Source: Minisyncoccota bacterium
GTDB taxonomy: Bacteria; Patescibacteriota; Minisyncoccia; JAHISW01; Tagabacteraceae
Length of the DNA stretch: 64,000 nucleotides
Reading direction: 5' to 3'
Assembly (NCBI GenBank): GCA_028711505.1
Contig: JAQTSC010000002.1
Location: 11,936 to 75,935, forward strand
Under the pieces are notes generated by a model, which was given only the letters and a program-made list of their open reading frames with translations, ran no database searches and was not told the origin of the DNA. The translations under genes and the position numbers were made by a program. The first letter of the stretch is position 1, and each line of letters starts with the position of its first letter. This document shows, piece by piece, positions 2,610 to 50,228 of this stretch.

Positions 2610-4788
2610 CGTAATTTTCCGGAGGTAAGTCTAAAATCTCGCGCGGACGGGAACCGTCGGGAGGCCCGACAACTCCTCTCTCTTCCATCATATCAAGAAG
2701 GCGCGCGGCCCGGGAATAACCGACCCTTAATCTTCTTTGCAGCAGAGAGGTTGACGCTCTCTTTGACTGAATAATTATTTCTCTTGCCTGTTCGTAAAGT
2801 TCGTCTTCTTCGTCGTCGCCGGACCCTGGCGTCTCGTCAAAAATCGAGGATTGCTGCATTTCGCCGTTTCCCAAATTTATTTCCGACGAATCGAAATTTT
2901 CATATTCTCCCAAAAGATAATTGACTACTTTCTTTACCTCGCTTTCCGAAACAAAAGTTCCCTGTATGCGCCGCGGCTTTGCCGAATCGCCGGAAAGGTA
3001 GAGCATGTCTCCGTTTCCCAAAAGCTTCTCCGCTCCCGCCATATCCAAAATTGTTCTGGAATCAACTTGAGACGCAACTTGAAAAGCAACGCGGCTGGTG
3101 ATGTTCGCTTTTATAAGTCCGGTGATAACTTCAACCGAGGGCCTTTGGGTGGAAACAACAAGATGTATCCCCACGGCGCGAGACATTTGCGCCAGCCTCA
3201 CTATTGAAGATTCAAACTCGCGCGGATAACTCATCATAATATCGGCGAGCTCGTCAATTATAACGACAATATACGGCATTGATTCTGTTTTACCGTTTTT
3301 GTGATAAGAATTTATGTCTCTCGCTCCGGCCGCCAAAAGCACATCGTATCTTCTTTCCATTTCTTTGGTCGCCCATTTCAAAGCCACTATCGCCTTCTTC
3401 GCTTCTGTTATTACCGGCGAAAGAAGGTACGGTAAATTATTGTACATGGTAAGCTCCACGCGTTTCGGGTCTATCATGAGAAGCTGAAGGTCTGCCGGAG
3501 AATGTCTGTAAAGCAAGCTCATTATAAGCGAATGTATTGCCACTGATTTTCCGGAACCGGTAGCTCCGGCTATAAGCACATGGGGCATTTTCGCTATTGA
3601 AGCGTAGACCGGTCTGCCTGCCACGTTTCTGCCTAAGGCCAAAAGAAGAGGCAGTTCGGAATTCAGATATTCCGTTTGCTGAAGAAGCGACCGCAAACCG
3701 ACAAGAGAAGATGACCTGTTTGGAACTTCTATTCCCACAAGAGACTTGCCGGGTATTGGAGCTTCTATTCGTATGGGATGGCTTGCCAACGCCAAAGACA
3801 AATCATTATTAAGTCCCGTGATGCGCGATAATTTTACGCCTTCCGCCGGTTTTAAAGTATATTGCGTAACGGAAGGACCTATTCTTATTTCATCCATTTC
3901 CACGCTTATTCCGAAATTCTGAAAAGTCCGTTTTATGATATTGGAATTAGCTTTTATGTCCCCTGCCGAAGGCTTGCCCTTATCCGATTCCAAAAGCTCA
4001 AATGGAGGAGGATTGAATTTTTTGTCGGAAAATTTTTTAAAAACACCTGACAAAATTTTTGTTTTTATCCCGTTTTCATTTTCTTCTTCCACGTCGTATT
4101 TTTCACCTGGTTCTTTTTTCATCTCATTTCCGTTTTCTTCTGTTTTTTCTCCGACCGCTATTGCGTCCGCGGGAACGGAAGGAATACCGTAAACTTCGCC
4201 TTGAGACTGGGCATCCGATTCTTCGAGTTTGGATTTGGAAAAAAACATTCGTTCTCTTGCTCTTCTCGCGAGCGAAGCGAAAGAAATAGGAATATTAGAC
4301 ATTATCAGAAAGCCGACGATAAAAACCATGGAGAAAACAATTATGCTGGCCCAAAAATCAATCAGCTTCAAAAAAGGAAGAGCCGCCAAAAAACCCACGT
4401 ATCCGCCGGTTTTTTTCCCAAAAACGATATCTATAAGAGATAAGCTGCTTACAAAAATAAAAAGCCCGCCTATCAAGCTGGAGGCAAGAAGCCGCGGCCT
4501 GTATGAGGAAAAAAGAGAAATGGAAATAAAAAAAAGCACCGCGGGCACCAAAAAAATCGCCGTGCCAAAAAGCCAATCAAGCCCAACACGGACATATTCT
4601 CCGGCCACCCCAGCCTTATTGCAGACAACGAGGACAAAAAAGAGAGAAAATCCAAGGCAAACTATGCCCCAAATTGAATATTTTGTCTCGTCTTTAAGCC
4701 CGGAATGCCAACGCGTATCGGGCGCGTTTTTCGCGCTCTTTTCGGCAGATGAGGAAATGCTTTTTTTAACGCCGTTTTTTAACGCCAT
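2602..4788 (-). CDS. ftsK: DNA translocase FtsK/SpoIIIE
   Basis: N-terminal multi-TM region, an acidic linker, the Walker A 'GATGSGKSVAIHSLIMSLL' motor domain, and a C-terminal winged-helix gamma domain (LLQRRLRVGYSRAARLLDMMEERGVVGP). Confidence 0.9.
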   Translation of the reverse strand: MALKNGVKKSISSSAEKSAKNAPDTRWHSGLKDETKYSIWGIVCLGFSLFFVLVVCNKAGVAGEYVRVGLDWLFGTAIFLVPAVLFFISISLFSSYRPRLLASSLIGGLFIFVSSLSLIDIVFGKKTGGYVGFLAALPFLKLIDFWASIIVFSMVFIVGFLIMSNIPISFASLARRARERMFFSKSKLEESDAQSQGEVYGIPSVPADAIAVGEKTEENGNEMKKEPGEKYDVEEENENGIKTKILSGVFKKFSDKKFNPPPFELLESDKGKPSAGDIKANSNIIKRTFQNFGISVEMDEIRIGPSVTQYTLKPAEGVKLSRITGLNNDLSLALASHPIRIEAPIPGKSLVGIEVPNRSSSLVGLRSLLQQTEYLNSELPLLLALGRNVAGRPVYASIAKMPHVLIAGATGSGKSVAIHSLIMSLLYRHSPADLQLLMIDPKRVELTMYNNLPYLLSPVITEAKKAIVALKWATKEMERRYDVLLAAGARDINSYHKNGKTESMPYIVVIIDELADIMMSYPREFESSIVRLAQMSRAVGIHLVVSTQRPSVEVITGLIKANITSRVAFQVASQVDSRTILDMAGAEKLLGNGDMLYLSGDSAKPRRIQGTFVSESEVKKVVNYLLGEYENFDSSEINLGNGEMQQSSIFDETPGSGDDEEDELYEQAREIIIQSKRASTSLLQRRLRVGYSRAARLLDMMEERGVVGPPDGSRPREILDLPPENYDA

Positions 4789-4889
4789 TTCAACTTAGTT
4801 ATGCTACGTTTAATTGATTCTTCGGGTCAAAATAAAAAATTTTGTTTTTATTCACCCTCATTGTCAATTATAGTCCAAAACGGCGAAAA

Positions 4890-4930
4890 ATCAAAAAACC
4901 TGCGGGGAATATCTCCCCACAGGTTTTGAA
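4890..4930 (-). terminator. intrinsic terminator downstream of the S41 peptidase gene (minus strand), possibly bidirectional
   Basis: AAAAAACCTGCGGGGA-ATAT-CTCCCCACAGGTTTT: a 12-bp GC-rich stem flanked by an A-run and a T-run. Confidence 0.5.
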
Positions 4931-6729: not shown

Positions 6730-7317
6730 CTAATTACTCAGATATTGGCATATTGTTACCCCCACGCCATTACTGTTTGGAACAGGTATACCGATTCCGC
6801 AAGATACGTTTTCTCCTTCCAGATACCAAAGAAGGAAAAAGCTTTTGCAAAAATTGTTCGGACGAAAAGAACAAGAATAAACATATCCCTGGAAACAGAT
6901 ATCCGGTCCTCCCCCTGCCCCGGAAGGCCCGCAAATAATTCCTTGGTCTCCCGTATAATTTTTAAAATCAACATAGGGAGAAAGCGCACTGTTAAGCACC
7001 GATGATTCGCTATACGATACCCCGTTAAATCCGCATTTGTCATCGTCGTAATCTCCCAAGCAATGCGGTCCGGTATCTCCCGGGTCTGGATATTCTCCAT
7101 TTCCTGAAATTGCCAAATTTATGGCTTTTACATATTGATTTATGTCCGATATTCTTTCTGAATTTCTGGAATCTATTCTTACGCCATTATACAAAACAAG
7201 AGCGACAGAGCTCAACAATCCCACAATTCCGATGACAACAAGAAGCTCCAAAAGAGTAAAAGCCGCGTTTCTCTTTTTTATGACAAAACGCCGGGAAAAA
7301 ACCAGTTTCAAGTTCAT
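6730..7317 (-). CDS. type IV pilin-like protein (class III signal peptide, Cys-rich variable C-terminus), copy 1
   Basis: Prepilin-type N-terminus 'KKRNAAFTLLELLVVIGIVGLL' (FTLLE motif; A instead of G at -1). Four or more conserved Cys in the C-terminal region. Confidence 0.7.
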   Translation of the reverse strand: MNLKLVFSRRFVIKKRNAAFTLLELLVVIGIVGLLSSVALVLYNGVRIDSRNSERISDINQYVKAINLAISGNGEYPDPGDTGPHCLGDYDDDKCGFNGVSYSESSVLNSALSPYVDFKNYTGDQGIICGPSGAGGGPDICFQGYVYSCSFRPNNFCKSFFLLWYLEGENVSCGIGIPVPNSNGVGVTICQYLSN

Positions 7318-7324
7318 ATTTTAA
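7027..7324. repeat. direct repeat copy A (~300 bp, 5' third of the pilin gene; period 657 bp)
   Basis: Six-frame ORFs 7142..7324 and 7799..7981 translate identically and the two pilin N-termini are identical for 97 codons. Boundaries approximate. Confidence 0.75.
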
Positions 7325-7389
7325 TTTTCAACCTCTTAAGTACGCTTCTTCGCGCTTTTTCTTTCACGTATTATCGGATAAGAAAATTA

Positions 7390-7974
7390 TCAATGGCCTA
7401 CATATGAACATCCTGTTATGGTAGCGCCGCCCCTCATTTCATGTGAAATACCGATTCCGCAAGAAGCGTCTGCTCCTTCCATAAGCCATTGGATGACAAT
7501 TGTTTTGCAAAAATTATTCGGACGCTCAGAACAAAAATAGATATATCCTTCGGAGCACTCCTCCGGGGCTTCTCCGCCAGGAAGTCCGCAGACCATGGCT
7601 TTATTGCCGGCATAAGTTTTCAAATCCAAATAAGGAGAAAGGATATTATTCAGCGTCTCCGATTCGGAATAATATGTCCCATTAAGTCCGCATTTGTCAT
7701 CGTCGTAATCTCCCAAACAATGCGGTCCGGTATCTCCCGGGTCTGGATATTCTCCATTTCCTGAAATTGCCAAATTTATGGCTTTTACATATTGATTTAT
7801 GTCCGATATTCTTTCTGAATTTCTGGAATCTATTCTTACGCCATTATACAAAACAAGAGCGACAGAGCTCAACAATCCCACAATTCCGATGACAACAAGA
7901 AGCTCCAAAAGAGTAAAAGCCGCGTTTCTCTTTTTTATGACAAAACGCCGGGAAAAAACCAGTTTCAAGTTCAT
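7390..7974 (-). CDS. type IV pilin-like protein, copy 2 (N-terminal 97 aa identical to copy 1, C-terminus divergent)
   Basis: Same prepilin leader and FTLLE motif. Identical to 6730..7317 through '...DYDDDKCG', then diverges while conserving the Cys positions. Confidence 0.7.
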   Translation of the reverse strand: MNLKLVFSRRFVIKKRNAAFTLLELLVVIGIVGLLSSVALVLYNGVRIDSRNSERISDINQYVKAINLAISGNGEYPDPGDTGPHCLGDYDDDKCGLNGTYYSESETLNNILSPYLDLKTYAGNKAMVCGLPGGEAPEECSEGYIYFCSERPNNFCKTIVIQWLMEGADASCGIGISHEMRGGATITGCSYVGH

Positions 7975-12452: not shown

Positions 12453-12610
12453 CACAACAACAAAAAACATCCGCTTGCCGGGTGTTTTTTGTTGTTGCTA
12501 TTGAGGAACTAAGCGCGAAGAAAATACCACTTCAGGCGGAGAAAATAAAATAGAAAAAATTTATTAACCTATTCATTATAGGAAGGGGAAATCATTGTTT
12601 TTATTTTGAT

Positions 12611-13219: not shown

Positions 13220-14707
13220 TTAAAAATTCTCTTCAAAAAATTTGCCTAAAGAAAATAATCTTTCTTCTTCAAACCACGGAGCCATAAATTGAACGCCTAT
13301 CGGCAATTTTTTCGCTCCAATTTCCGCGTACCCGCAAGGCAAAGAGATTGCCGGAACTCCGCTTAAATTTGCCGACACGGTAAAGATATCCGCAAGATAC
13401 ATCTGTACGGGGTCTTCTGTTCTTTCTCCAAGTTTAAAAGCCGGCGTAGGGGTTGTCGGACTCAACACGACATCAACATCGGTAAAAGCCCGGTTAAAAT
13501 CGGCTTTCATCAAATCTCTGGCTTTTTGCGCCAAACCGTAATATTCGTCATAATAACCGGACGAAAGAACGTATGTTCCAAGCAAAATCCTCCTGCGCGC
13601 TTCCCTGCCAAAACCTTTTCCTCTTGTTTCTTTATAGCCGGCCAAAAGATTTTCTCCGGATTTTGAAAATCCGTATTTTATACCGTCGTATCTCGCGAGA
13701 TTTGAAGAAACTTCGGCTGGCATAATTACATAATAAATTTCAAGCGCGTATTTCAAGCTCGGCAAACTGATTTCTTTTATTTCATATCCTGAATTTTTGA
13801 AAAACCCTATCGCTTTAAAAACATTTTCGGAAACGAAGTTATCAATGCCTTTGTTTTCACCGGATAAATTGAAAAATTCTTTTGGTATTCCTATTTTCAG
13901 CTTTTGACTATCGTCCGCCGGCCGACGAATCGATTTTCTGTTTTTGGTTTCTTCACTGGTAGAATCCATCGGGTCGCAATCTCGTATGGCGTTAAAAATT
14001 ATTTCCGCATCTTCCACGGTTTTCGTCATCGGGCCTATCTGGTCCAAAGAAGATGCCATGGCAATAAGTCCGTGTCTTGAGACCGCTCCGTAGGTCGGTT
14101 TAAACCCCACAATTCCGCAAAAACCGGCCGGCTGCCTTATTGAACCGCCGGTGTCGGAACCAAGCGCGGCAAGACACATCTGGCTGGCGACCGCGGCGGC
14201 GGAGCCGCCGGAAGACCCGCCGGAAACTCTTTCTCCGTCATAAGGATTTTTGGTCGCTCCAAAAGCGGAATTTTCGGTTGAACCGCCCATGGCAAATTCA
14301 TCAAGGTTGGTTTTTCCTAAAAATATGGCGCCTTCTTTTTCAAGCTTATCAATAACCGCGGCATTGTACGGCGCTTTGAAATTTTCAAGAATTTTCGACG
14401 CGGCAGTGCACTTTTTTCCTTTTATCAAAATGTTGTCTTTTATCGCCAAAGGAATCCCGGTCAATTCCGAAAATCGCCCTCCCTCTTTGATTTGCTCGTC
14501 AATTTTTTCCGCCTTCTCCATTACATCGTCAAAAACTTCCAAATAAGCGTTGATATCGCTGTTTCTTTTCTTGATGTTTTCAAGATAAAAAACGGAAAGT
14601 TCCCTGCTGGAAATTTCGCCGGTTTTTAGAAGTTCGTGCGCTTTTTTTATTGAAAGTTCGGATAAATCAATCTTCGTCATTATCAAAAACTTTTTTAACC
14701 TTAACAA
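13220..14707 (-). CDS. gatA: Asp-tRNA(Asn)/Glu-tRNA(Gln) amidotransferase subunit A
   Basis: Amidase signature 'GGSSGGSAAAVA' with the Ser-cisSer-Lys triad context. 495 aa. Overlaps gatC. Confidence 0.95.
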   Translation of the reverse strand: MLRLKKFLIMTKIDLSELSIKKAHELLKTGEISSRELSVFYLENIKKRNSDINAYLEVFDDVMEKAEKIDEQIKEGGRFSELTGIPLAIKDNILIKGKKCTAASKILENFKAPYNAAVIDKLEKEGAIFLGKTNLDEFAMGGSTENSAFGATKNPYDGERVSGGSSGGSAAAVASQMCLAALGSDTGGSIRQPAGFCGIVGFKPTYGAVSRHGLIAMASSLDQIGPMTKTVEDAEIIFNAIRDCDPMDSTSEETKNRKSIRRPADDSQKLKIGIPKEFFNLSGENKGIDNFVSENVFKAIGFFKNSGYEIKEISLPSLKYALEIYYVIMPAEVSSNLARYDGIKYGFSKSGENLLAGYKETRGKGFGREARRRILLGTYVLSSGYYDEYYGLAQKARDLMKADFNRAFTDVDVVLSPTTPTPAFKLGERTEDPVQMYLADIFTVSANLSGVPAISLPCGYAEIGAKKLPIGVQFMAPWFEEERLFSLGKFFEENF

Positions 14708-14987
14708 ACCCTCTCTCTTTCTGCGGCGCTTCTTTCAAAAACGTTTCGCTGTATTCGGCTTCCTTATGCGGATTCTCGTCTTCTCTTAAAACGTTCTTAA
14801 GTCCCGCGCTGTCCCCGTTTTCGTTTTCAGCCGAGATAATCTGCAGTTCACCCGGCGCTTGTTTTAATTTTGAGATGAACGTCACGATATCATCCAAATT
14901 TTTTTGGAGCACTTTCAACTCGCTGTCAGGAACATCCAAACGGCCAAGTTCGGCTAATTTTTCCAACTCTTTTTTCGTAAATGCCAT
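14667..14987 (-). CDS. gatC: Asp-tRNA(Asn)/Glu-tRNA(Gln) amidotransferase subunit C
   Basis: ~100-aa GatC-like sequence (MAFTKKELEKLAELGRLDV...) directly upstream of and overlapping gatA. Confidence 0.85.
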   Translation of the reverse strand: MAFTKKELEKLAELGRLDVPDSELKVLQKNLDDIVTFISKLKQAPGELQIISAENENGDSAGLKNVLREDENPHKEAEYSETFLKEAPQKERGFVKVKKVFDNDED

Positions 14988-15182
14988 GTTTTAATATTAC
15001 ACGCGCAAGGAGATTATTAAAAGCATCCGCTTCGAACCTCTGGAATATTCCTTTCGCGACACGCTCTCTTCGCTCCAGCGGCTCACTCGCTCGTCTACGG
15101 CGAAAAAAATTTTTTGTTTTATAAATTTTAACAAAAAATACCAATCTTTTTTCGTCTTCGAATGATCTTGAAAGAAATATTA

Positions 15183-15347
15183 CCGAGGTTCGCTAAAAAC
15201 CAGTAGGGAGCAGAATGTTTCCTCTGAGCGGATTGTGTAGGCGTTTTGGCATGGTCCCCGCCCTTGGCGGGGCAAAACGCCGGAACCCTCGGAGTCCCGC
15301 GCTGGCGGGACGAGAATGAGCGAAGGGAAAACATTCTACTCCCTACT
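15183..15347. ncRNA. candidate structured RNA element (GC-rich, nested hairpins closed by a ~20-bp long-range stem); identity and strand unknown
   Basis: AGTAGGGAGCAGAATGTTTCC (15202-15222) pairs with GGAAAACATTCTACTCCCTACT (15325-15347). Enclosed are CCGAGG...CCTCGG and GGCGTTTTGGC...GCCAAAACGCC with an inner CCCCGCC-CTT-GGCGGGG hairpin. Lies in the 3' UTR of ligA and upstream of gatC. Confidence 0.3.
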
Positions 15348-15348
15348 A

Positions 15349-17421
<2,073 letters not shown>

Positions 17422-26313: not shown

Positions 26314-26964
26314 ATGGGCATTGTGAAGCAAGTTATCCACACATTTTTGAATATAATTTTCCCTGAAAGATGTTTTGGCTGCGGGACAATCGGTTTCTTG
26401 TTTTGTGAAAAATGCCGGCAAAAAATTAACGGCCCGAAGATATCAAAATTCGGCGAAATTGAAGTATTTAGCGCGGCTTCATATCAAAACGATGGGATAA
26501 AAAATGCCATCAAAAATTTAAAATACAGATATGCCAAAAATACCGCGGAAGCCTTGGCAAATATAATTATTGAAAAAATAATTTCACCGGAAATTTTAGA
26601 AATAGAAGACGATGATATCTTGGTGCCAATTCCCCTTTCCCCAAAAAGAACGAGAGAAAGAGGGTTCAACCAAGCAGAGCTTATCGCAAAAATTCTATCG
26701 GACAAAATATTTATAAAGATGCGCGGCGATATCCTCTATAAAACAAAAGAAACCGAATCGCAAGTGGAAATAAAAAATCGAGATGAACGGCTGAAAAATT
26801 TAGCCGGCGCGTTCGTCGTAAAAGATTTTTCAGCCGTTCATGAAAAAACAATCTTTCTAATTGACGATGTCTGCACAACCGGCGCGACTTTATACGAAGC
26901 CTCAAAGGTTTTAAGGCATGCCGGCGCGAAAAAAATTATCGGAATCACTGTGGCGCGAGGGTAA
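26314..26964 (+). CDS. comFC: competence protein ComFC (phosphoribosyltransferase-like)
   Basis: N-terminal CxxC...CxxC zinc ribbon and the C-terminal PRTase motif 'LIDDVCTTGATL'. Confidence 0.85.
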   Translation: MGIVKQVIHTFLNIIFPERCFGCGTIGFLFCEKCRQKINGPKISKFGEIEVFSAASYQNDGIKNAIKNLKYRYAKNTAEALANIIIEKIISPEILEIEDDDILVPIPLSPKRTRERGFNQAELIAKILSDKIFIKMRGDILYKTKETESQVEIKNRDERLKNLAGAFVVKDFSAVHEKTIFLIDDVCTTGATLYEASKVLRHAGAKKIIGITVARG

Positions 26965-28024: not shown

Positions 28025-28127
28025 TATTGCCCTAGTCAAGATTTTGATTTAGGATTGTTCTCGAATGTAATTCGGGCTTTTGCAGATATTTATAAAAACA
28101 CGTTAAATTTGAATTGGTGAGCTTGGC

Positions 28128-28217
28128 GGAGGCGTGGCTGAGCGGTTGAAGGCGGCGGTCTTGAAAACCGTTATGCCGGCAACGGCATCAGAGGTTCGAA
28201 TCCTCTCGCCTCCGCCA
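28128..28217 (+). tRNA. tRNA-Ser (TGA), with encoded CCA
   Basis: GGAGGCG acceptor, anticodon loop CTTGAAA, long variable arm, T loop TTCGAAT, 3'-GCCA. Confidence 0.85.
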
Positions 28218-28244
28218 AGCTTGTGAATTTCTCTCAAATAGCCA

Positions 28245-29322: not shown

Positions 29323-29398
29323 ATTTTTGGAAAGATAGTTAAAACAAAAACAACCTCTGCTCAGAGGTTGTTTTTGTTTTAACGTTTTTCGAAACAAA

Positions 29399-31495: not shown

Positions 31496-31534
31496 CAAAA
31501 AACATTCCGGCCGCCGATAAGCGCAGCCGGAATG
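31496..31534 (-). terminator. intrinsic terminator after large adhesin-like gene copy B (minus strand)
   Basis: Hairpin CATTCCGGCtgcgcttatcggcgGCCGGAATG followed by TTTTTTG on the minus strand. Part of the duplicated unit. Confidence 0.5.
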
Positions 31535-32155
31535 AAAGAATATCAAGCGTCGGTTGAATTGATTTAAAAAGGAAGTATTTCTTTCCAATTAGGAAGCGGC
31601 CATTTTACTTCCACTGTGCTTAAAAGCGTGCATGATTTTCCGTTTGAATCGGTGATTCTTAAGGAGACTTGTTTTGAGCCTTGGCTTAAAAATGTTGTCA
31701 TCGGGCTTTGTTCTACCGAAGTTCCGGGGGAACCGTCTTGGAATTCCCATACGCGTTCAGTGGTGGAAGCTCCTTCGGTGACCGTTGAACTGTCCGTGAA
31801 TTGAACGACATCGTCTTCGTTGGGCTTGAAAGGAAGCCATGTGTAGACAACGGTCGGGTATTCGACGTAATCCGTGGTAAAAGGAGTTCCGACAATCCAA
31901 TCAGAATGGCCGTTATCGTCATTGTAGACTTTGACGCGCCAATTATACGTTTCTCCGTAGACGAGTTTGTCTGATTCGGGGACATCAATGACGAGAACCT
32001 GCTGTGTATTTATCGTGGGGCTTGGATATGAAAGTCCCGATTGGTTTCTGTCCACTTCAGGCGATAGAAAATCGCTGTTGTTGTCTACCTGCATTTGGAA
32101 TCTTGATTCCGCTTTTTCAAGAGGGTCGGAATACGTCCACGAGAAGGTATGGCGG
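31499..32155. repeat. near-identical direct repeat, copy B (3' end of adhesin gene plus terminator; period 2040 bp)
   Basis: Six-frame ORFs 31616..31804 / 33656..33844 and 31713..31988 / 33753..34028 translate identically. Boundaries approximate. Confidence 0.8.
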
Positions 32156-33522
32156 GCTATATTGCAATATGTGTCAGGACCCGGTTCTGATACAGAGAGG
32201 TCAGTAGCTTCCGGATCTCCGCTTGGAGGCACAAAAGAAGTATTAACCTGATATCCCGAGCCGTTGAAATTCACCCATCCGACGACATCTCCTCCCCATG
32301 CCCAGCCTGACCAATTTCCCGAAGTGTCCATAGTGGCGCCGTAGGCGCCGGGATTCTCTCCTTCATCATATGCCGCAGCCGACGGAGTAAAATTTGAAGT
32401 CCAGCGGGCGATGTCTTTGGAAATTCTAAGTTCGTCAATATAACCATTCACTCCCATATCTCCATTCCAATGCGCTCCGACTCTTAAATCATAATTGCCC
32501 GCGTTTATATTAGTTATAGAAGCATCGGTATAATCAGCGCCCAGCTGAACGCCGTTTACATACATGCGAATCTTTGTTCCGTTTCTCACAAGCGCCAAAT
32601 GATACCAAGTGTGAAGCTGCGCGCTGGTCCAATCTCTCGACATTAAAATTACACTTCCGCTTTTATCGTAAGTGAAGTATAGCGTTCCGTCAGCGTGCCT
32701 CCATAAATTCCAGCCATCCGTGTCTGCCGTTCCCCTGCCTCCTCTTCCGACAAAATTTTGATGAGTATTTATTGAATTTAGATACACCCAAAAATCAACG
32801 GTAAAGTCTCCGCTAAAATCCCAATCGGAACTGTTGGGAGTAGAAAGATAATCTCCGCTGCCGTCAAAAGCGGCGCTGTATCCTCCGAATTTGCTCTGGC
32901 TGGAACTTCTCGCGACATTTCCGTTTGGCGTCATCACATGGGTGAAGGCCGAACTATTCGTCAACCCCATATCATCCATATGCAAAAGCAATTTCGCATA
33001 GCTGTCATTACCTCCAATGCCTCCGCCTCCTGCGGAAGGGTCTCTTAAACTAATCCATCCGTCCCAGCCTCCGCCGTAAGAAAGAGCTCTCGCCCAGCCT
33101 TCTATGGAAAGATTCTCATCTCCTATATCGGCCGGAGAATCAACTCTGGCATCGCAAACGCCCGATGGACAGCCTGAGAGATCAGCCGCGTTAAAAGTTA
33201 TCCATCCGATATTTTCGGACCAGGCAAAACCGGAAAAAATACCAGTGTCCAAATTAAGATTCACTCCGTAGCTGGAGGTTCCGCCTCCGGTCAAATTGTT
33301 AAAACTTATCCATCCGATATTTTCGGACCAGGCGAAACCGGTGGTATTTTGCGCGCTTCCGGCTTCTGCAGGCTCCCAATTCCGCAAAAACATCACGGCG
33401 GAAAAAATAAAAACAACGGAGATTAAAACATTTATTAAAAAACCTAATTTTTCGGATGCCGATTTTTTTATTATGGAAAGATTCATTGTCTTTATTTTAC
33501 GCCAGAAAACGATCAACGGCAA
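31564..33522 (-). CDS. large secreted/anchored adhesin-like protein with repeated 'AWSENIGWISFN' motifs, LamG/ConA-like lectin domain insertion, and C-terminal PKD-like domain (copy B)
   Basis: N-terminal signal-anchor. Tandem 'GFAWSENIGWI(S/T)FN' repeats. Central ~230 aa with a LamG-like pattern (DFTVDFWV...WYHLALVRNG...MYVNGV...GYIDELRI). C-terminal 'WEFQDGSPGT...' PKD-like beta-sandwich. Confidence 0.55.
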   Translation of the reverse strand: MPLIVFWRKIKTMNLSIIKKSASEKLGFLINVLISVVFIFSAVMFLRNWEPAEAGSAQNTTGFAWSENIGWISFNNLTGGGTSSYGVNLNLDTGIFSGFAWSENIGWITFNAADLSGCPSGVCDARVDSPADIGDENLSIEGWARALSYGGGWDGWISLRDPSAGGGGIGGNDSYAKLLLHMDDMGLTNSSAFTHVMTPNGNVARSSSQSKFGGYSAAFDGSGDYLSTPNSSDWDFSGDFTVDFWVYLNSINTHQNFVGRGGRGTADTDGWNLWRHADGTLYFTYDKSGSVILMSRDWTSAQLHTWYHLALVRNGTKIRMYVNGVQLGADYTDASITNINAGNYDLRVGAHWNGDMGVNGYIDELRISKDIARWTSNFTPSAAAYDEGENPGAYGATMDTSGNWSGWAWGGDVVGWVNFNGSGYQVNTSFVPPSGDPEATDLSVSEPGPDTYCNIARHTFSWTYSDPLEKAESRFQMQVDNNSDFLSPEVDRNQSGLSYPSPTINTQQVLVIDVPESDKLVYGETYNWRVKVYNDDNGHSDWIVGTPFTTDYVEYPTVVYTWLPFKPNEDDVVQFTDSSTVTEGASTTERVWEFQDGSPGTSVEQSPMTTFLSQGSKQVSLRITDSNGKSCTLLSTVEVKWPLPNWKEILPF

Positions 33523-33535
33523 ACCTGTTGTGGAT

Positions 33536-33574
33536 AATAAAACATTCCGACCGCCGATAAGCGCAGCCGGAATG
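33536..33574 (-). terminator. intrinsic terminator after adhesin-like gene copy A (duplicate of 31496..31534 with one stem mismatch)
   Basis: CATTCCGaCC...GGCCGGAATG hairpin plus a T-rich tract on the minus strand. Confidence 0.4.
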
Positions 33575-34195
33575 AAAGAATATCAAGCGTCGGTTGAATT
33601 GATTTAAAAAGGAAGTATTTCTTTCCAATTAGGAAGCGGCCATTTTACTTCCACTGTGCTTAAAAGCGTGCATGATTTTCCGTTTGAATCGGTGATTCTT
33701 AAGGAGACTTGTTTTGAGCCTTGGCTTAAAAATGTTGTCATCGGGCTTTGTTCTACCGAAGTTCCGGGGGAACCGTCTTGGAATTCCCATACGCGTTCAG
33801 TGGTGGAAGCTCCTTCGGTGACCGTTGAACTGTCCGTGAATTGAACGACATCGTCTTCGTTGGGCTTGAAAGGAAGCCATGTGTAGACAACGGTCGGGTA
33901 TTCGACGTAATCCGTGGTAAAAGGAGTTCCGACAATCCAATCAGAATGGCCGTTATCGTCATTGTAGACTTTGACGCGCCAATTATACGTTTCTCCGTAG
34001 ACGAGTTTGTCTGATTCGGGGACATCAATGACGAGAACCTGCTGTGTATTTATCGTGGGGCTTGGATATGAAAGTCCCGATTGGTTTCTGTCCACTTCAG
34101 GCGATAGAAAATCGCTGTTGTTGTCTACCTGCATTTGGAATCTTGATTCCGCTTTTTCAAGAGGGTCGGAATACGTCCACGAGAAGGTATGGCGG
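33539..34195. repeat. near-identical direct repeat, copy A
   Basis: See copy B. The 5' ends of the two genes (about 33060-33540 vs 34420-34900) are also similar but more diverged. Confidence 0.8.
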
Positions 34196-34878
34196 GCGGT
34201 ATTGCAGTACGTATCGGAGCTTGGCGAGGAAACCGTAAGATCGATAGCTTTCGGATTGATATCCACCGGCACAAAAGAAGTATTAACCTGATATCCCGAG
34301 CCGTTGAAATTCACCCACCCGACGACATCTCCTCCCCATGCCCAGCCTGACCAATTTCCCGAAGTGTCCATAGTGGTGCCGTAGGCCTCTCCGCTATCTT
34401 TCAAACTAATCCATCCGTCCCAGCCTCCGCCGTAAGAAAGAGCTTTCGCCCAGCCTTCTATGGCAACTGTTTCCTTTCCTATTTTATTTGGCAAAGCGAC
34501 TCTGGCATCGCAAACGCCCGATGGACAGCCTGCGAGATCAGCCGCGTTAAAACTTATCCATCCGATATTTTCGGACCAGGCAAAACCGGAAAAAATACCG
34601 GTGTCCAAATTAAGATTCACTCCGTAATCGGAAGTGCCGCCTCCGGTCAAATTATTAAAACTTATCCATCCGATATTTTCGGACCAAGCGAAACCGGTGG
34701 TATTTTGCATATTTCCAGCGTTTACGGATTTCGAATTTAGAAGAAACATCGCTCCCGAAAAAATAATCGCAACGGAGATTAAAACATTTATTGAAAAACT
34801 AAATTTTTCGGATGCCGATTTTTTTATTATGGAAAGATTCATTGTCTTTATTTTACGCCAGAAAACGGTCAACGGCAA
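33604..34878 (-). CDS. adhesin-like paralog lacking the LamG-like insertion (copy A)
   Basis: The first ~150 aa and the C-terminal ~230 aa are near-identical to 31564..33522. The lectin-like middle region is absent. Confidence 0.55.
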   Translation of the reverse strand: MPLTVFWRKIKTMNLSIIKKSASEKFSFSINVLISVAIIFSGAMFLLNSKSVNAGNMQNTTGFAWSENIGWISFNNLTGGGTSDYGVNLNLDTGIFSGFAWSENIGWISFNAADLAGCPSGVCDARVALPNKIGKETVAIEGWAKALSYGGGWDGWISLKDSGEAYGTTMDTSGNWSGWAWGGDVVGWVNFNGSGYQVNTSFVPVDINPKAIDLTVSSPSSDTYCNTARHTFSWTYSDPLEKAESRFQMQVDNNSDFLSPEVDRNQSGLSYPSPTINTQQVLVIDVPESDKLVYGETYNWRVKVYNDDNGHSDWIVGTPFTTDYVEYPTVVYTWLPFKPNEDDVVQFTDSSTVTEGASTTERVWEFQDGSPGTSVEQSPMTTFLSQGSKQVSLRITDSNGKSCTLLSTVEVKWPLPNWKEILPF

Positions 34879-40520: not shown

Positions 40521-40593
40521 TAATATTTTTGGATGTGCCAGGACTCGAACCTGGAACCATCGAGGTATAAGCTCGAAGCTCTGCCAATTGAGC
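40521..40593 (-). tRNA. tRNA-Ile with UAU anticodon (by manual fold)
   Basis: Reverse complement folds as GGATGTG-TA-GCTC-AATTGGCA-GAGC-T-TCGAG-CTTATAC-CTCGA-TGGTT-CCAGG-TTCGAGT-CCTGG-CACATCC-A. Confidence 0.7.
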
Positions 40594-40611
40594 TACACAT
40601 CCCCCCTTATT

Positions 40612-48204: not shown

Positions 48205-48239
48205 AAAAGGGGTTCGTGTTAAACACGAACCCCTTTTTC
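48205..48239. terminator. bidirectional intrinsic terminator between convergent operons
   Basis: AAAAGGGGTTCGTG-ttaaa-CACGAACCCCTTTTT: a perfect 10-bp stem flanked by an A-run and a T-run. Confidence 0.65.
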
Positions 48240-49782: not shown

Positions 49783-49804
49783 CTTCTCTTAAAATAATTT
49801 TAAC

Positions 49805-50215
49805 CTAAAGCGAGCAGGAAGGAAACTGGTTCCACGATTTATACAGACTGAACCCGGGGTCAAGCAGAAAACCAAGTATCGTATTGATTACGGCGTAAGC
49901 CGCGAAAGCGATAACAATGCCGGTTGCCGTAAATTTAAAAATGTTTTTCCCTTTCTCAATTTGGCTTGAATTATCTCCTCCCGTCATAAAAATAATTCCC
50001 GCCGCGGCAAAAGACAAAACGGACAAAGGCAAAACTATATTAAAAGCAAGAAATTTTACAAGATTGCCCGCAAGCTCGGCAAACTTGCAAAAATCGCACG
50101 CAGGCTGTCCCGCGCCGCCGCAAGGCACTATCTTTGCCGCTCCAGCCAAAAGAGGAAACATCAAGAAAAAAACAGTCAAGATGTTTACTCCCAAAATTTT
50201 TATATTTCTCCCCAT
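49805..50215 (-). CDS. small secreted two-TM protein, VirB2/TrbC-like paralog 1 (Cys-rich N-terminal segment); start taken at internal Met
   Basis: Signal peptide, 'CGGAGQPACDFC', TM1 'LAFNIVLPLSVLSFAAAGIIF', loop 'GGDNSSQIEKGKN', and TM2 'TATGIVIAFAAYAVI'. Confidence 0.45.
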   Translation of the reverse strand: MGRNIKILGVNILTVFFLMFPLLAGAAKIVPCGGAGQPACDFCKFAELAGNLVKFLAFNIVLPLSVLSFAAAGIIFMTGGDNSSQIEKGKNIFKFTATGIVIAFAAYAVINTILGFLLDPGFSLYKSWNQFPSCSL

Positions 50216-50228
50216 TGCTCCTCTATGT

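Follow-up and report, generated by a model that had tools for sequence, protein, structure and literature searches.

A small structured element (positions 15201-15348) lies in the spacer between ligA and gatC in the window, the 64-kb stretch of genomic DNA analysed here. It consists of a 22-bp closing helix around a 104-nt, 65% GC three-way junction and belongs to a real family, though one with only three members, that keeps its helices through compensatory changes and is absent from this site in related genomes. With a probability of roughly 0.4, we read the element as a sporadically acquired structured module that would be co-transcribed with ligA and would act here as a terminator or as a duplex of the RNase III type.

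Setting and fold of the element

The LigA protein of the window is identical to MDD5032748.1 from Candidatus Pacebacteria (CPR/Patescibacteria), and ligA, gatC and gatA follow one another in this order on the minus strand (Table 1). The genome is compact, with spacers mostly of 5-100 nt, and the 361 nt between ligA and gatC form one of its longest spacers without a tRNA gene. This spacer is also the most structured of the window spacers longer than about 110 nt (z = -8.5), exceeding even those that hold tRNAs, and open reading frames across it gave no match in Pfam. The longest spacer of the window (49783-50228, 446 nt) shows ordinary folding (z -0.5 and -1.2). The initial annotation, made from the letters of the sequence, had described a GC-rich stretch that begins directly at the ligA stop, and both points hold: the G+C content is 0.57 for 15175-15324 vs 0.426 for the whole window, and the stop codon occupies 15349-15351 on the minus strand.

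Folded as RNA, the minus strand reaches -85 kcal/mol (z -7.6), compared with -80.2 kcal/mol (z -5.2) for the plus strand, and no shuffle equalled either value. The arm AGTAGGGAGCAGAATGTTTCC (15202-15222) pairs with 15327-15347 with 2 mismatches; such a pair appeared in 0 of 100 shuffles, and the two arms make up the longest local inverted repeat in the window (I1), in agreement with the long-range closing helix of about 20 bp that had been proposed. Both mismatches read C.A when the plus strand is folded but become G.U pairs in the minus strand, which weakly favours the latter as the one that folds. The antisense strands of the three members fold about equally well, so folding energy is not decisive for the strand. 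The gene-sense strand is probably the one that works as RNA, judging from co-orientation with an operon in two cases, a promoter-like site beside the third member, and the G.U pairs of the window copy.

The closing helix (P1) holds two hairpin arms, P2 and P3/P3a. Two of the inner helices named in the initial annotation occur in the minimum-energy fold, namely GGCGTTTTG/CAAAACGCC (15273-15281 with 15240-15248) and CCCCGCC/GGCGGGG (15266-15272 with 15256-15262). A further one, CCGAGG (15183) with CCTCGG (15288), is absent from both folds; CCGAGG is part of the closing helix of the neighbouring domain B, and the left boundary, placed at 15183 before, moves to 15201. One hairpin had been missed, GTCCCGC-CAGC-GCGGGAC (15294-15311, minus strand), which belongs to P2. 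The 3' junction strand forms two 2-bp helices with the 5' junction strand (15318-15326), and a search for a conserved pseudoknot between the unpaired regions found none.

Table 1. Genes, helices and signals in and around the ligA-gatC spacer (window coordinates).
Feature	Position	Strand	Basis or remark
ligA (NAD-dependent DNA ligase, 689 aa)	15349..17418	-	gene upstream of the element
Closing helix P1, 5' arm UAGUAGGGAGUAGAAUGUUUUC	15327..15348	-	minimum-energy folds, inverted repeat I1, arm search; adjoins the ligA stop codon
P2 hairpin	15285..15317	-	lower stem AUUCUC/GAGGGU, 3-nt bulge, upper stem GUCCCGC/GCGGGAC, loop CAGC (15301-15304)
P3/P3a arm	15240..15281	-	P3 GGCGUUUUG/CAAAACGCC; P3a CCCCGCC-AAG-GGCGGGG
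7-nt bulge ACCAUGC, 3' side of the P3/P3a arm	15249-15255	-	
3' junction strand (UACACAAUCC, then GC, UC, AG, A)	15223..15239	-	fold and model alignment
Closing helix P1, 3' arm GGAAACAUUCUGCUCCCUACUG	15201..15222	-	22 pairs, 3 G.U on the minus strand
UUUUU run	15195..15199	-	one base (G) past the closing helix; read from sequence
Domain B	15033..15192	-	inverted repeats I3 and I4, whole-spacer fold
Extended -10-like box TGTAATATT	14993..15001	-	by eye; 5 nt before the gatC ATG
gatC (106 aa)	14667..14987	-	PF02686; gene downstream of the element
gatA	13220-14707	-	PF01425 Amidase; next after gatC

Domain B has a 23-bp closing helix (15033-15055 with 15170-15192) that encloses two hairpins, an A/U one with U7 after it and a GC-rich one. 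A covariance model of its own (R3) found no homologue in any locus searched, and the domain is not part of the element's family. An independent assembly of the same organism (Logan contig L081, SRR22315508; 100% identical over 1401 nt) ends at window position 15127, exactly where domain B forms the loop of its A/U hairpin.

Several other features of the window were recorded. The tRNA-Ser gene at 28128-28217 has a 5' leader, AGCTTGGC, complementary to the discriminator base, the encoded CCA and four trailer bases (28120-28134 with 28207-28221), by which the acceptor stem of the precursor becomes 8 bp longer. ARAGORN placed a tRNA-Ile with anticodon UAU at 40530-40602 on the minus strand; this anticodon is uncommon in bacteria, most of which read AUA with a modified CAU anticodon. 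A repeat of at least 300 nt with 100% identity and another with 90% identity (31499-31798 with 33539-33838, and 33041-33340 with 34397-34696) lie in two adjacent large open reading frames (31564-33522 and 33604-34878), and tandem paralogues 86% identical occupy 6730-7974 (6915-7214 and 7572-7871).

A family of three members and its distribution

With the window sequence as its sole input, a covariance model (R1) was searched against about 190 kb of CPR DNA and matched in two loci, L003 (1-158; 51.6 bits, E 2e-9), where the copy is clipped by the contig end, and L082 (4055-4187; 46.7 bits, E 2.6e-8). Plain long hairpins of the window scored at most 22 bits in a model search with filters off. 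The L082 copy lies 4 nt past the gatC stop and 22 nt ahead of the gatA start, on the strand of the genes, and like the window copy is co-oriented with its flanking genes; the L003 copy has the opposite orientation and is situated upstream of a small gene and ligA. About 25 nt upstream of the L003 copy, on the element's strand, stands a promoter-like site (CTGACC, 17 nt, TATTAT; 1 found vs 0.2 expected). The density is about 3 copies per 190-200 kb, a figure for ligA neighbourhoods, which alone were sampled.

Folding the three members one at a time yields a single architecture, in which two hairpin arms leave a three-way junction. Of the cells in the model-based alignment 93.8% are paired, a share that drops to 43-52% once the partners are slid by 1-3 columns. 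Two-sided changes occur in 28 of 55 pairs, including 4 of 7 in the P2 upper stem, 4 of 7 in P3a and 3 of 9 in P3, and all helices contain compensatory changes. This alignment holds three sequences only and was fitted to the model, which favours the structure, a bias countered by the identical architecture of the sequences folded singly. Alignment with MAFFT followed by RNAalifold, which uses no structure model, recovered the closing helix and misaligned the core.

The CAGC loop of P2 is invariant in all three members (C-CAGC-G), the bulge after P3a is conserved as (A)ACC(A/G)UGC, and the junction strands are similar (the U.CA.A part). Within the roughly 190 kb of CPR DNA, the two signature motifs occur together only at these three places. 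The cores measure 95-104 nt with 65-67% GC in hosts of 38-52% GC whose LigA proteins are only 51-69% identical. The closing helices, of 22, 19 and at least 22 bp, contain no mismatches (perfect or with G.U only) and have 26-45% GC, and their arms show no sequence common to the three members.

Wider searches did not enlarge the family. The three-member model (R2) was run on about 1.6 Mb, made up of ligA loci (730 kb) and LigA-bearing viral contigs (865 kb), and gave no further match with E<1; no second copy exists in 67.5 kb of the genome itself (the 64-kb window and 3.5 kb of L093). Nothing was found by nhmmer and blastn against 81 ligA loci, and blastn against phage and plasmid collections returned only chance matches of 30-40 nt. 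Scans for the exact closing arms, the least conserved part, found none in viral contigs and one single-arm match in metagenomes, in an unrelated context and judged to be chance. Of two core-motif scans of viral contigs one was empty and the other gave 7 matches, 0 of which the model confirmed.

No known family accounts for the element. Rfam 15 gave no family match at gathering scores over the whole window, and with inputs of 121-601 nt at E<=10 only chance microRNA-type and other weak matches far below thresholds; the L082 and L003 members returned noise only. The initial annotation had seen no SRP, RNase P or tmRNA consensus by eye. SRP RNA, hammerhead and other self-cleaving cores, T-box and IS200/IS605 ends were dropped on inspection, as was 5S rRNA, because the CCAUGCC...AAC resemblance falls in the wrong arm, and tRNA acceptor mimicry, because L003 reads ACCG rather than ACCA. 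A literature search found no description of such a non-coding RNA motif in CPR bacteria.

The loci of nine relatives were compared, the closest LigA in a large collection being only 64-69% identical to that of the window. All nine keep ligA followed by gatC and gatA (gatA lies past the contig end in two, and L101 has an extra gene), and the element is absent from all nine within 2-10 kb of ligA. The ligA-gatC spacer, 361 nt here, measures 8-35 nt in seven of the nine. It is 8, 17, 21, 27, 27, 35, 147 and 217 nt long in the eight relatives without an extra gene, and in L101 74 nt and 32 nt flank the extra gene; the two long spacers (147 and 217 nt) hold unrelated hairpins. The element is thus not conserved at this position, and the 361-nt spacer is, as a whole, an expansion peculiar to this genome. 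The same pattern recurs at L082: in L101, whose LigA is 88% identical to that of L082, the gatC-gatA spacer that bears the element in L082 is 2 nt long, and no copy lies within 10 kb downstream. Two further LigA proteins, P0121 (Logan, contig of 6.4 kb) and P0122 (ENA, contig of 24 kb), match that of L082 at 90% identity or more. Absence in close relatives, together with residence in non-orthologous spacers, points to a family that is gained or lost quickly. The apparent association with ligA and gatCAB is biased, as only ligA neighbourhoods were sampled.

Some of these loci have features of their own. The gatC-gatA spacer of L090 (4301-4407) contains an unrelated element of about 90 nt with a closing helix of about 22 bp, so different hairpin elements have entered this operon in different lineages. 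In L101 the extra open reading frame between ligA and gatC (4024-4533, 169 aa) has no Pfam match, and a GIY-YIG endonuclease-like gene lies near (6922-7311).

These comparisons bear on the initial proposal of a structured non-coding RNA in two ways. Its candidate status gains from two CPR homologues with compensatory changes, with no Rfam family to claim them, and loses from the residence of those homologues in non-orthologous spacers and from the nine relatives without the element. The test asked for in the initial annotation was covariation in homologous spacers of related genomes; it came from the two non-orthologous copies instead.

Local role and competing explanations

The initial annotation had set aside a simple terminator for lack of a T-tract, which is true for the plus strand only. 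On the minus strand, which carries ligA and gatC, G and UUUUU come right after the closing helix, and to judge from the sequence this combination looks like an intrinsic terminator of ligA. The genome's ordinary gene-end hairpins show stems of 14-21 bp and then a U run, and by this likeness the closing helix with G+U5 looks like a local terminator with the conserved core as its loop. Long perfect hairpins with 14-22 bp stems, several with U runs, were noted at the gene ends 29338-29383, 48205-48237, 26783-26841, 12455-12497 and about 4860-4900, and the one at 26783-26841 encloses a small inner hairpin. The U run is missing after the helix in L082 (L003 is ended there by the contig edge), so termination is not the family's general function; its lack fits the place of that copy between two genes that need joint expression.

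About two turns of perfect duplex form a classical RNase III substrate. The closing helices (22, 19 and at least 22 bp) offer in sequence the nearly perfect double-stranded RNA of at least 20 bp, or about two turns, that this enzyme is expected to recognise. On the far side of domain B, the extended -10-like box before gatC suggests that this gene may be transcribed from a promoter of its own as a leaderless mRNA; the ligA transcription unit would probably have the element at its 3' end. Similar -10-like boxes stand 5-10 nt before gatC in L084, L086, L091 and L092, often as '...TTAAAAC ATG', even where the spacer has only 17-27 nt.

We therefore favour, tentatively and at the probability given above, the following course of events. 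A module that is gained and lost on short evolutionary time scales, in differing spacers of differing genomes, would have been inserted here, with or beside the unrelated hairpin domain B, into an otherwise tight ligA-gatC junction. It would be transcribed with ligA and fold as RNA at the 3' end of the ligA message, where the closing helix with G+U5 could serve as the ligA terminator and as a hairpin protecting the 3' end; the same helix, about two turns of perfect duplex, may also be an RNase III substrate. Several points weigh against this reading. The family has three members only, so the covariation rests on few sequences; with antisense strands that fold about as well, the choice of RNA strand depends on orientation and three G.U pairs of a single helix; the L082 copy has no U run; 67.5 kb of this genome hold no second copy; the arms, unrelated in sequence and with no target duplication to be seen, give no sign of classical transposition; and a plain terminator needs no conserved core.

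In other readings the core itself is recognised. A possible but doubtful one is that the element represents a new conserved structured RNA class restricted to CPR/Patescibacteria, which either binds a partner (e.g. in the control of GatCAB tRNA-dependent amidation) or is a mobile element recognised by structure and lacking conserved ends. A trans-acting small RNA or RNP RNA, encoded in operons or behind its own promoter, cut out by RNase III and binding its partner through the CAGC loop and the ACC(A/G)UGC bulge, appears rather unlikely. Unpaired nucleotides that stay invariant while all stems covary, in hosts so far apart in LigA, speak for such an RNA, as do the perfect 19-22 bp closing helix of all three members, the promoter-like site upstream of L003 and the presence of a single copy in 67.5 kb, yet the RNA would have to be missing near ligA in nine relatives, L101 among them, it has no linked partner gene, and it matches no family in Rfam. 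Its entry into a gatC-gatA junction that is normally overlapping or very tight also resembles an insertion more than the move of a gene.

A further reading is a non-autonomous mobile DNA element (MITE, REPIN or attC-like), whose folded single strand would be recognised by a recombinase or transposase acting in trans, any effect on RNA being incidental. Close relatives that differ in presence, with clean empty sites and with varying position and orientation, a core composition foreign to the host, the equal folding of both strands and the wealth of inserted structured sequences in CPR genomes (PMC11270868) would all suit it. We nevertheless hold it to be improbable: the terminal arms have no sequence in common between copies, the ends show no target-site duplication, 67.5 kb of the genome contain just the one copy, scanning metagenomes for the exact arms gave only one chance half-match, the attC core sites (RYYYAAC/GTTRRRY) are absent from the ends, and no transposase gene is nearby. 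The sporadically acquired module, the small RNA and the mobile DNA element overlap as readings and are not separable on three members.

Control of the gatCAB amidotransferase genes in cis, by a riboswitch-like or tRNA-sensing RNA, is more improbable still. In its favour, a gat gene follows in both known cases, gatC at 214 nt in the window and gatA at 22 nt in L082, and the L003 copy has the position of a leader behind its promoter-like site. Sampling, however, covered ligA neighbourhoods alone, and the element is missing from nine relatives that carry gatCAB. A perfect P1 of 19-22 bp would form regardless of a ligand, domain B and the probable gatC promoter separate the element from gatC in the window, and no T-box, glutamine or other riboswitch model matches. 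There is very little chance that the element is an accidental hairpin or an ordinary long terminator without a family: the genome does have many gene-end hairpins with 14-22 bp stems, but these reach at most 22 bits, whereas the two homologues carry the core motifs at E values of about 1e-8 to 1e-9 and contradict this reading, and the control model of domain B finds nothing. A divergent 6S-like or other housekeeping RNA (SRP, RNase P, tmRNA, 5S) is the least probable explanation of all and is contradicted by the fold and the Rfam scans. The 6S-like architecture suggested in the initial annotation has size and a long closing stem in its favour, but all three members are three-way junctions and not rods with a central bubble, inputs of 121-601 nt match no Rfam model even at E<=10, and close relatives lack the element at this site.

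The core nucleotides and helices are kept across deeply diverged hosts and yet are missing in close relatives, which implies that the element is recognised by something, be it a protein, an RNA or a recombinase. It is a small structured intergenic element, moderately notable for its invariant loops and covarying stems, and under-sampled; three members make it a lead, not a result. CPR bacteria account for a large and uncultured share of bacterial diversity. Should the family turn out to be widespread, reduced genomes would have either a novel regulatory RNA or a small mobile element of a novel type, and annotators would be warned that long spacers in such genomes are not empty.

Comparison with known systems

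The element falls outside the definitions of MITEs, 6S RNA, attC sites and every Rfam family. Terminal inverted repeats conserved between copies, the mark of MITEs and Correia elements, are not shared among the three members; neither the window nor L082 has a direct repeat beside the arms as a target-site duplication (the empty L101 site has diverged too far to be aligned); and the copy number is one in the 64-kb window and 3.5 kb of L093. The integron attC core sites RYYYAAC/GTTRRRY are absent, the ends reading UAGUAGGG...CCCUACUG in the window and UUGGAUA...UAUCCAA in L082. The Rfam model of 6S RNA gave no match at the gathering score or at E<=10.

Other systems resemble the element in part. 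It has in common with intrinsic (Rho-independent) terminators a stable helix followed by a U run in the direction of ligA, and the local terminators are long-stemmed too, but its 'loop' is a conserved 104-nt three-way junction and the L082 member has no U run. Orphan structured RNA motifs, of the kind proposed as Rfam candidates, likewise combine covarying stems and conserved unpaired nucleotides within one lineage; unlike them, the element has an unusually long and perfect closing stem and only three members.

Small intergenic repeats come nearer. Like the Correia repeat enclosed elements (CREE) of Neisseria, ERIC, RUP/BOX and the Rickettsia palindromic elements, it has a length of about 100-150 nt, inverted ends and a conserved core, and it shares with CREE-type repeats an intergenic position and variable presence between strains, co-transcription being a feature of CREE. 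The RNA hairpin of CREE can be bound or cut by RNase III and can alter the expression of neighbouring genes (PMC2649163, PMC2229807). CREE-type repeats, however, occur in each genome as many near-identical copies, with terminal repeats that are conserved and with a target duplication, whereas the element has one copy in 67.5 kb, arms that share no sequence, and a core kept through compensatory changes. A second parallel is offered by the intervening sequences of 23S rRNA, which are sporadic stem-loop insertions whose long double-stranded stem is an RNase III processing site and which are regarded as selfish (PMC4990558); CPR genomes have many structured insertions in their rRNA genes (PMC11270868). 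Those sequences sit inside rRNA helices, whereas the element lies between protein-coding genes and its excision is hypothetical. By analogy, the element would work most like Correia-type elements and 23S intervening sequences, as an inserted stem-loop with a conserved core and variable presence, with RNase III as its likely reader.
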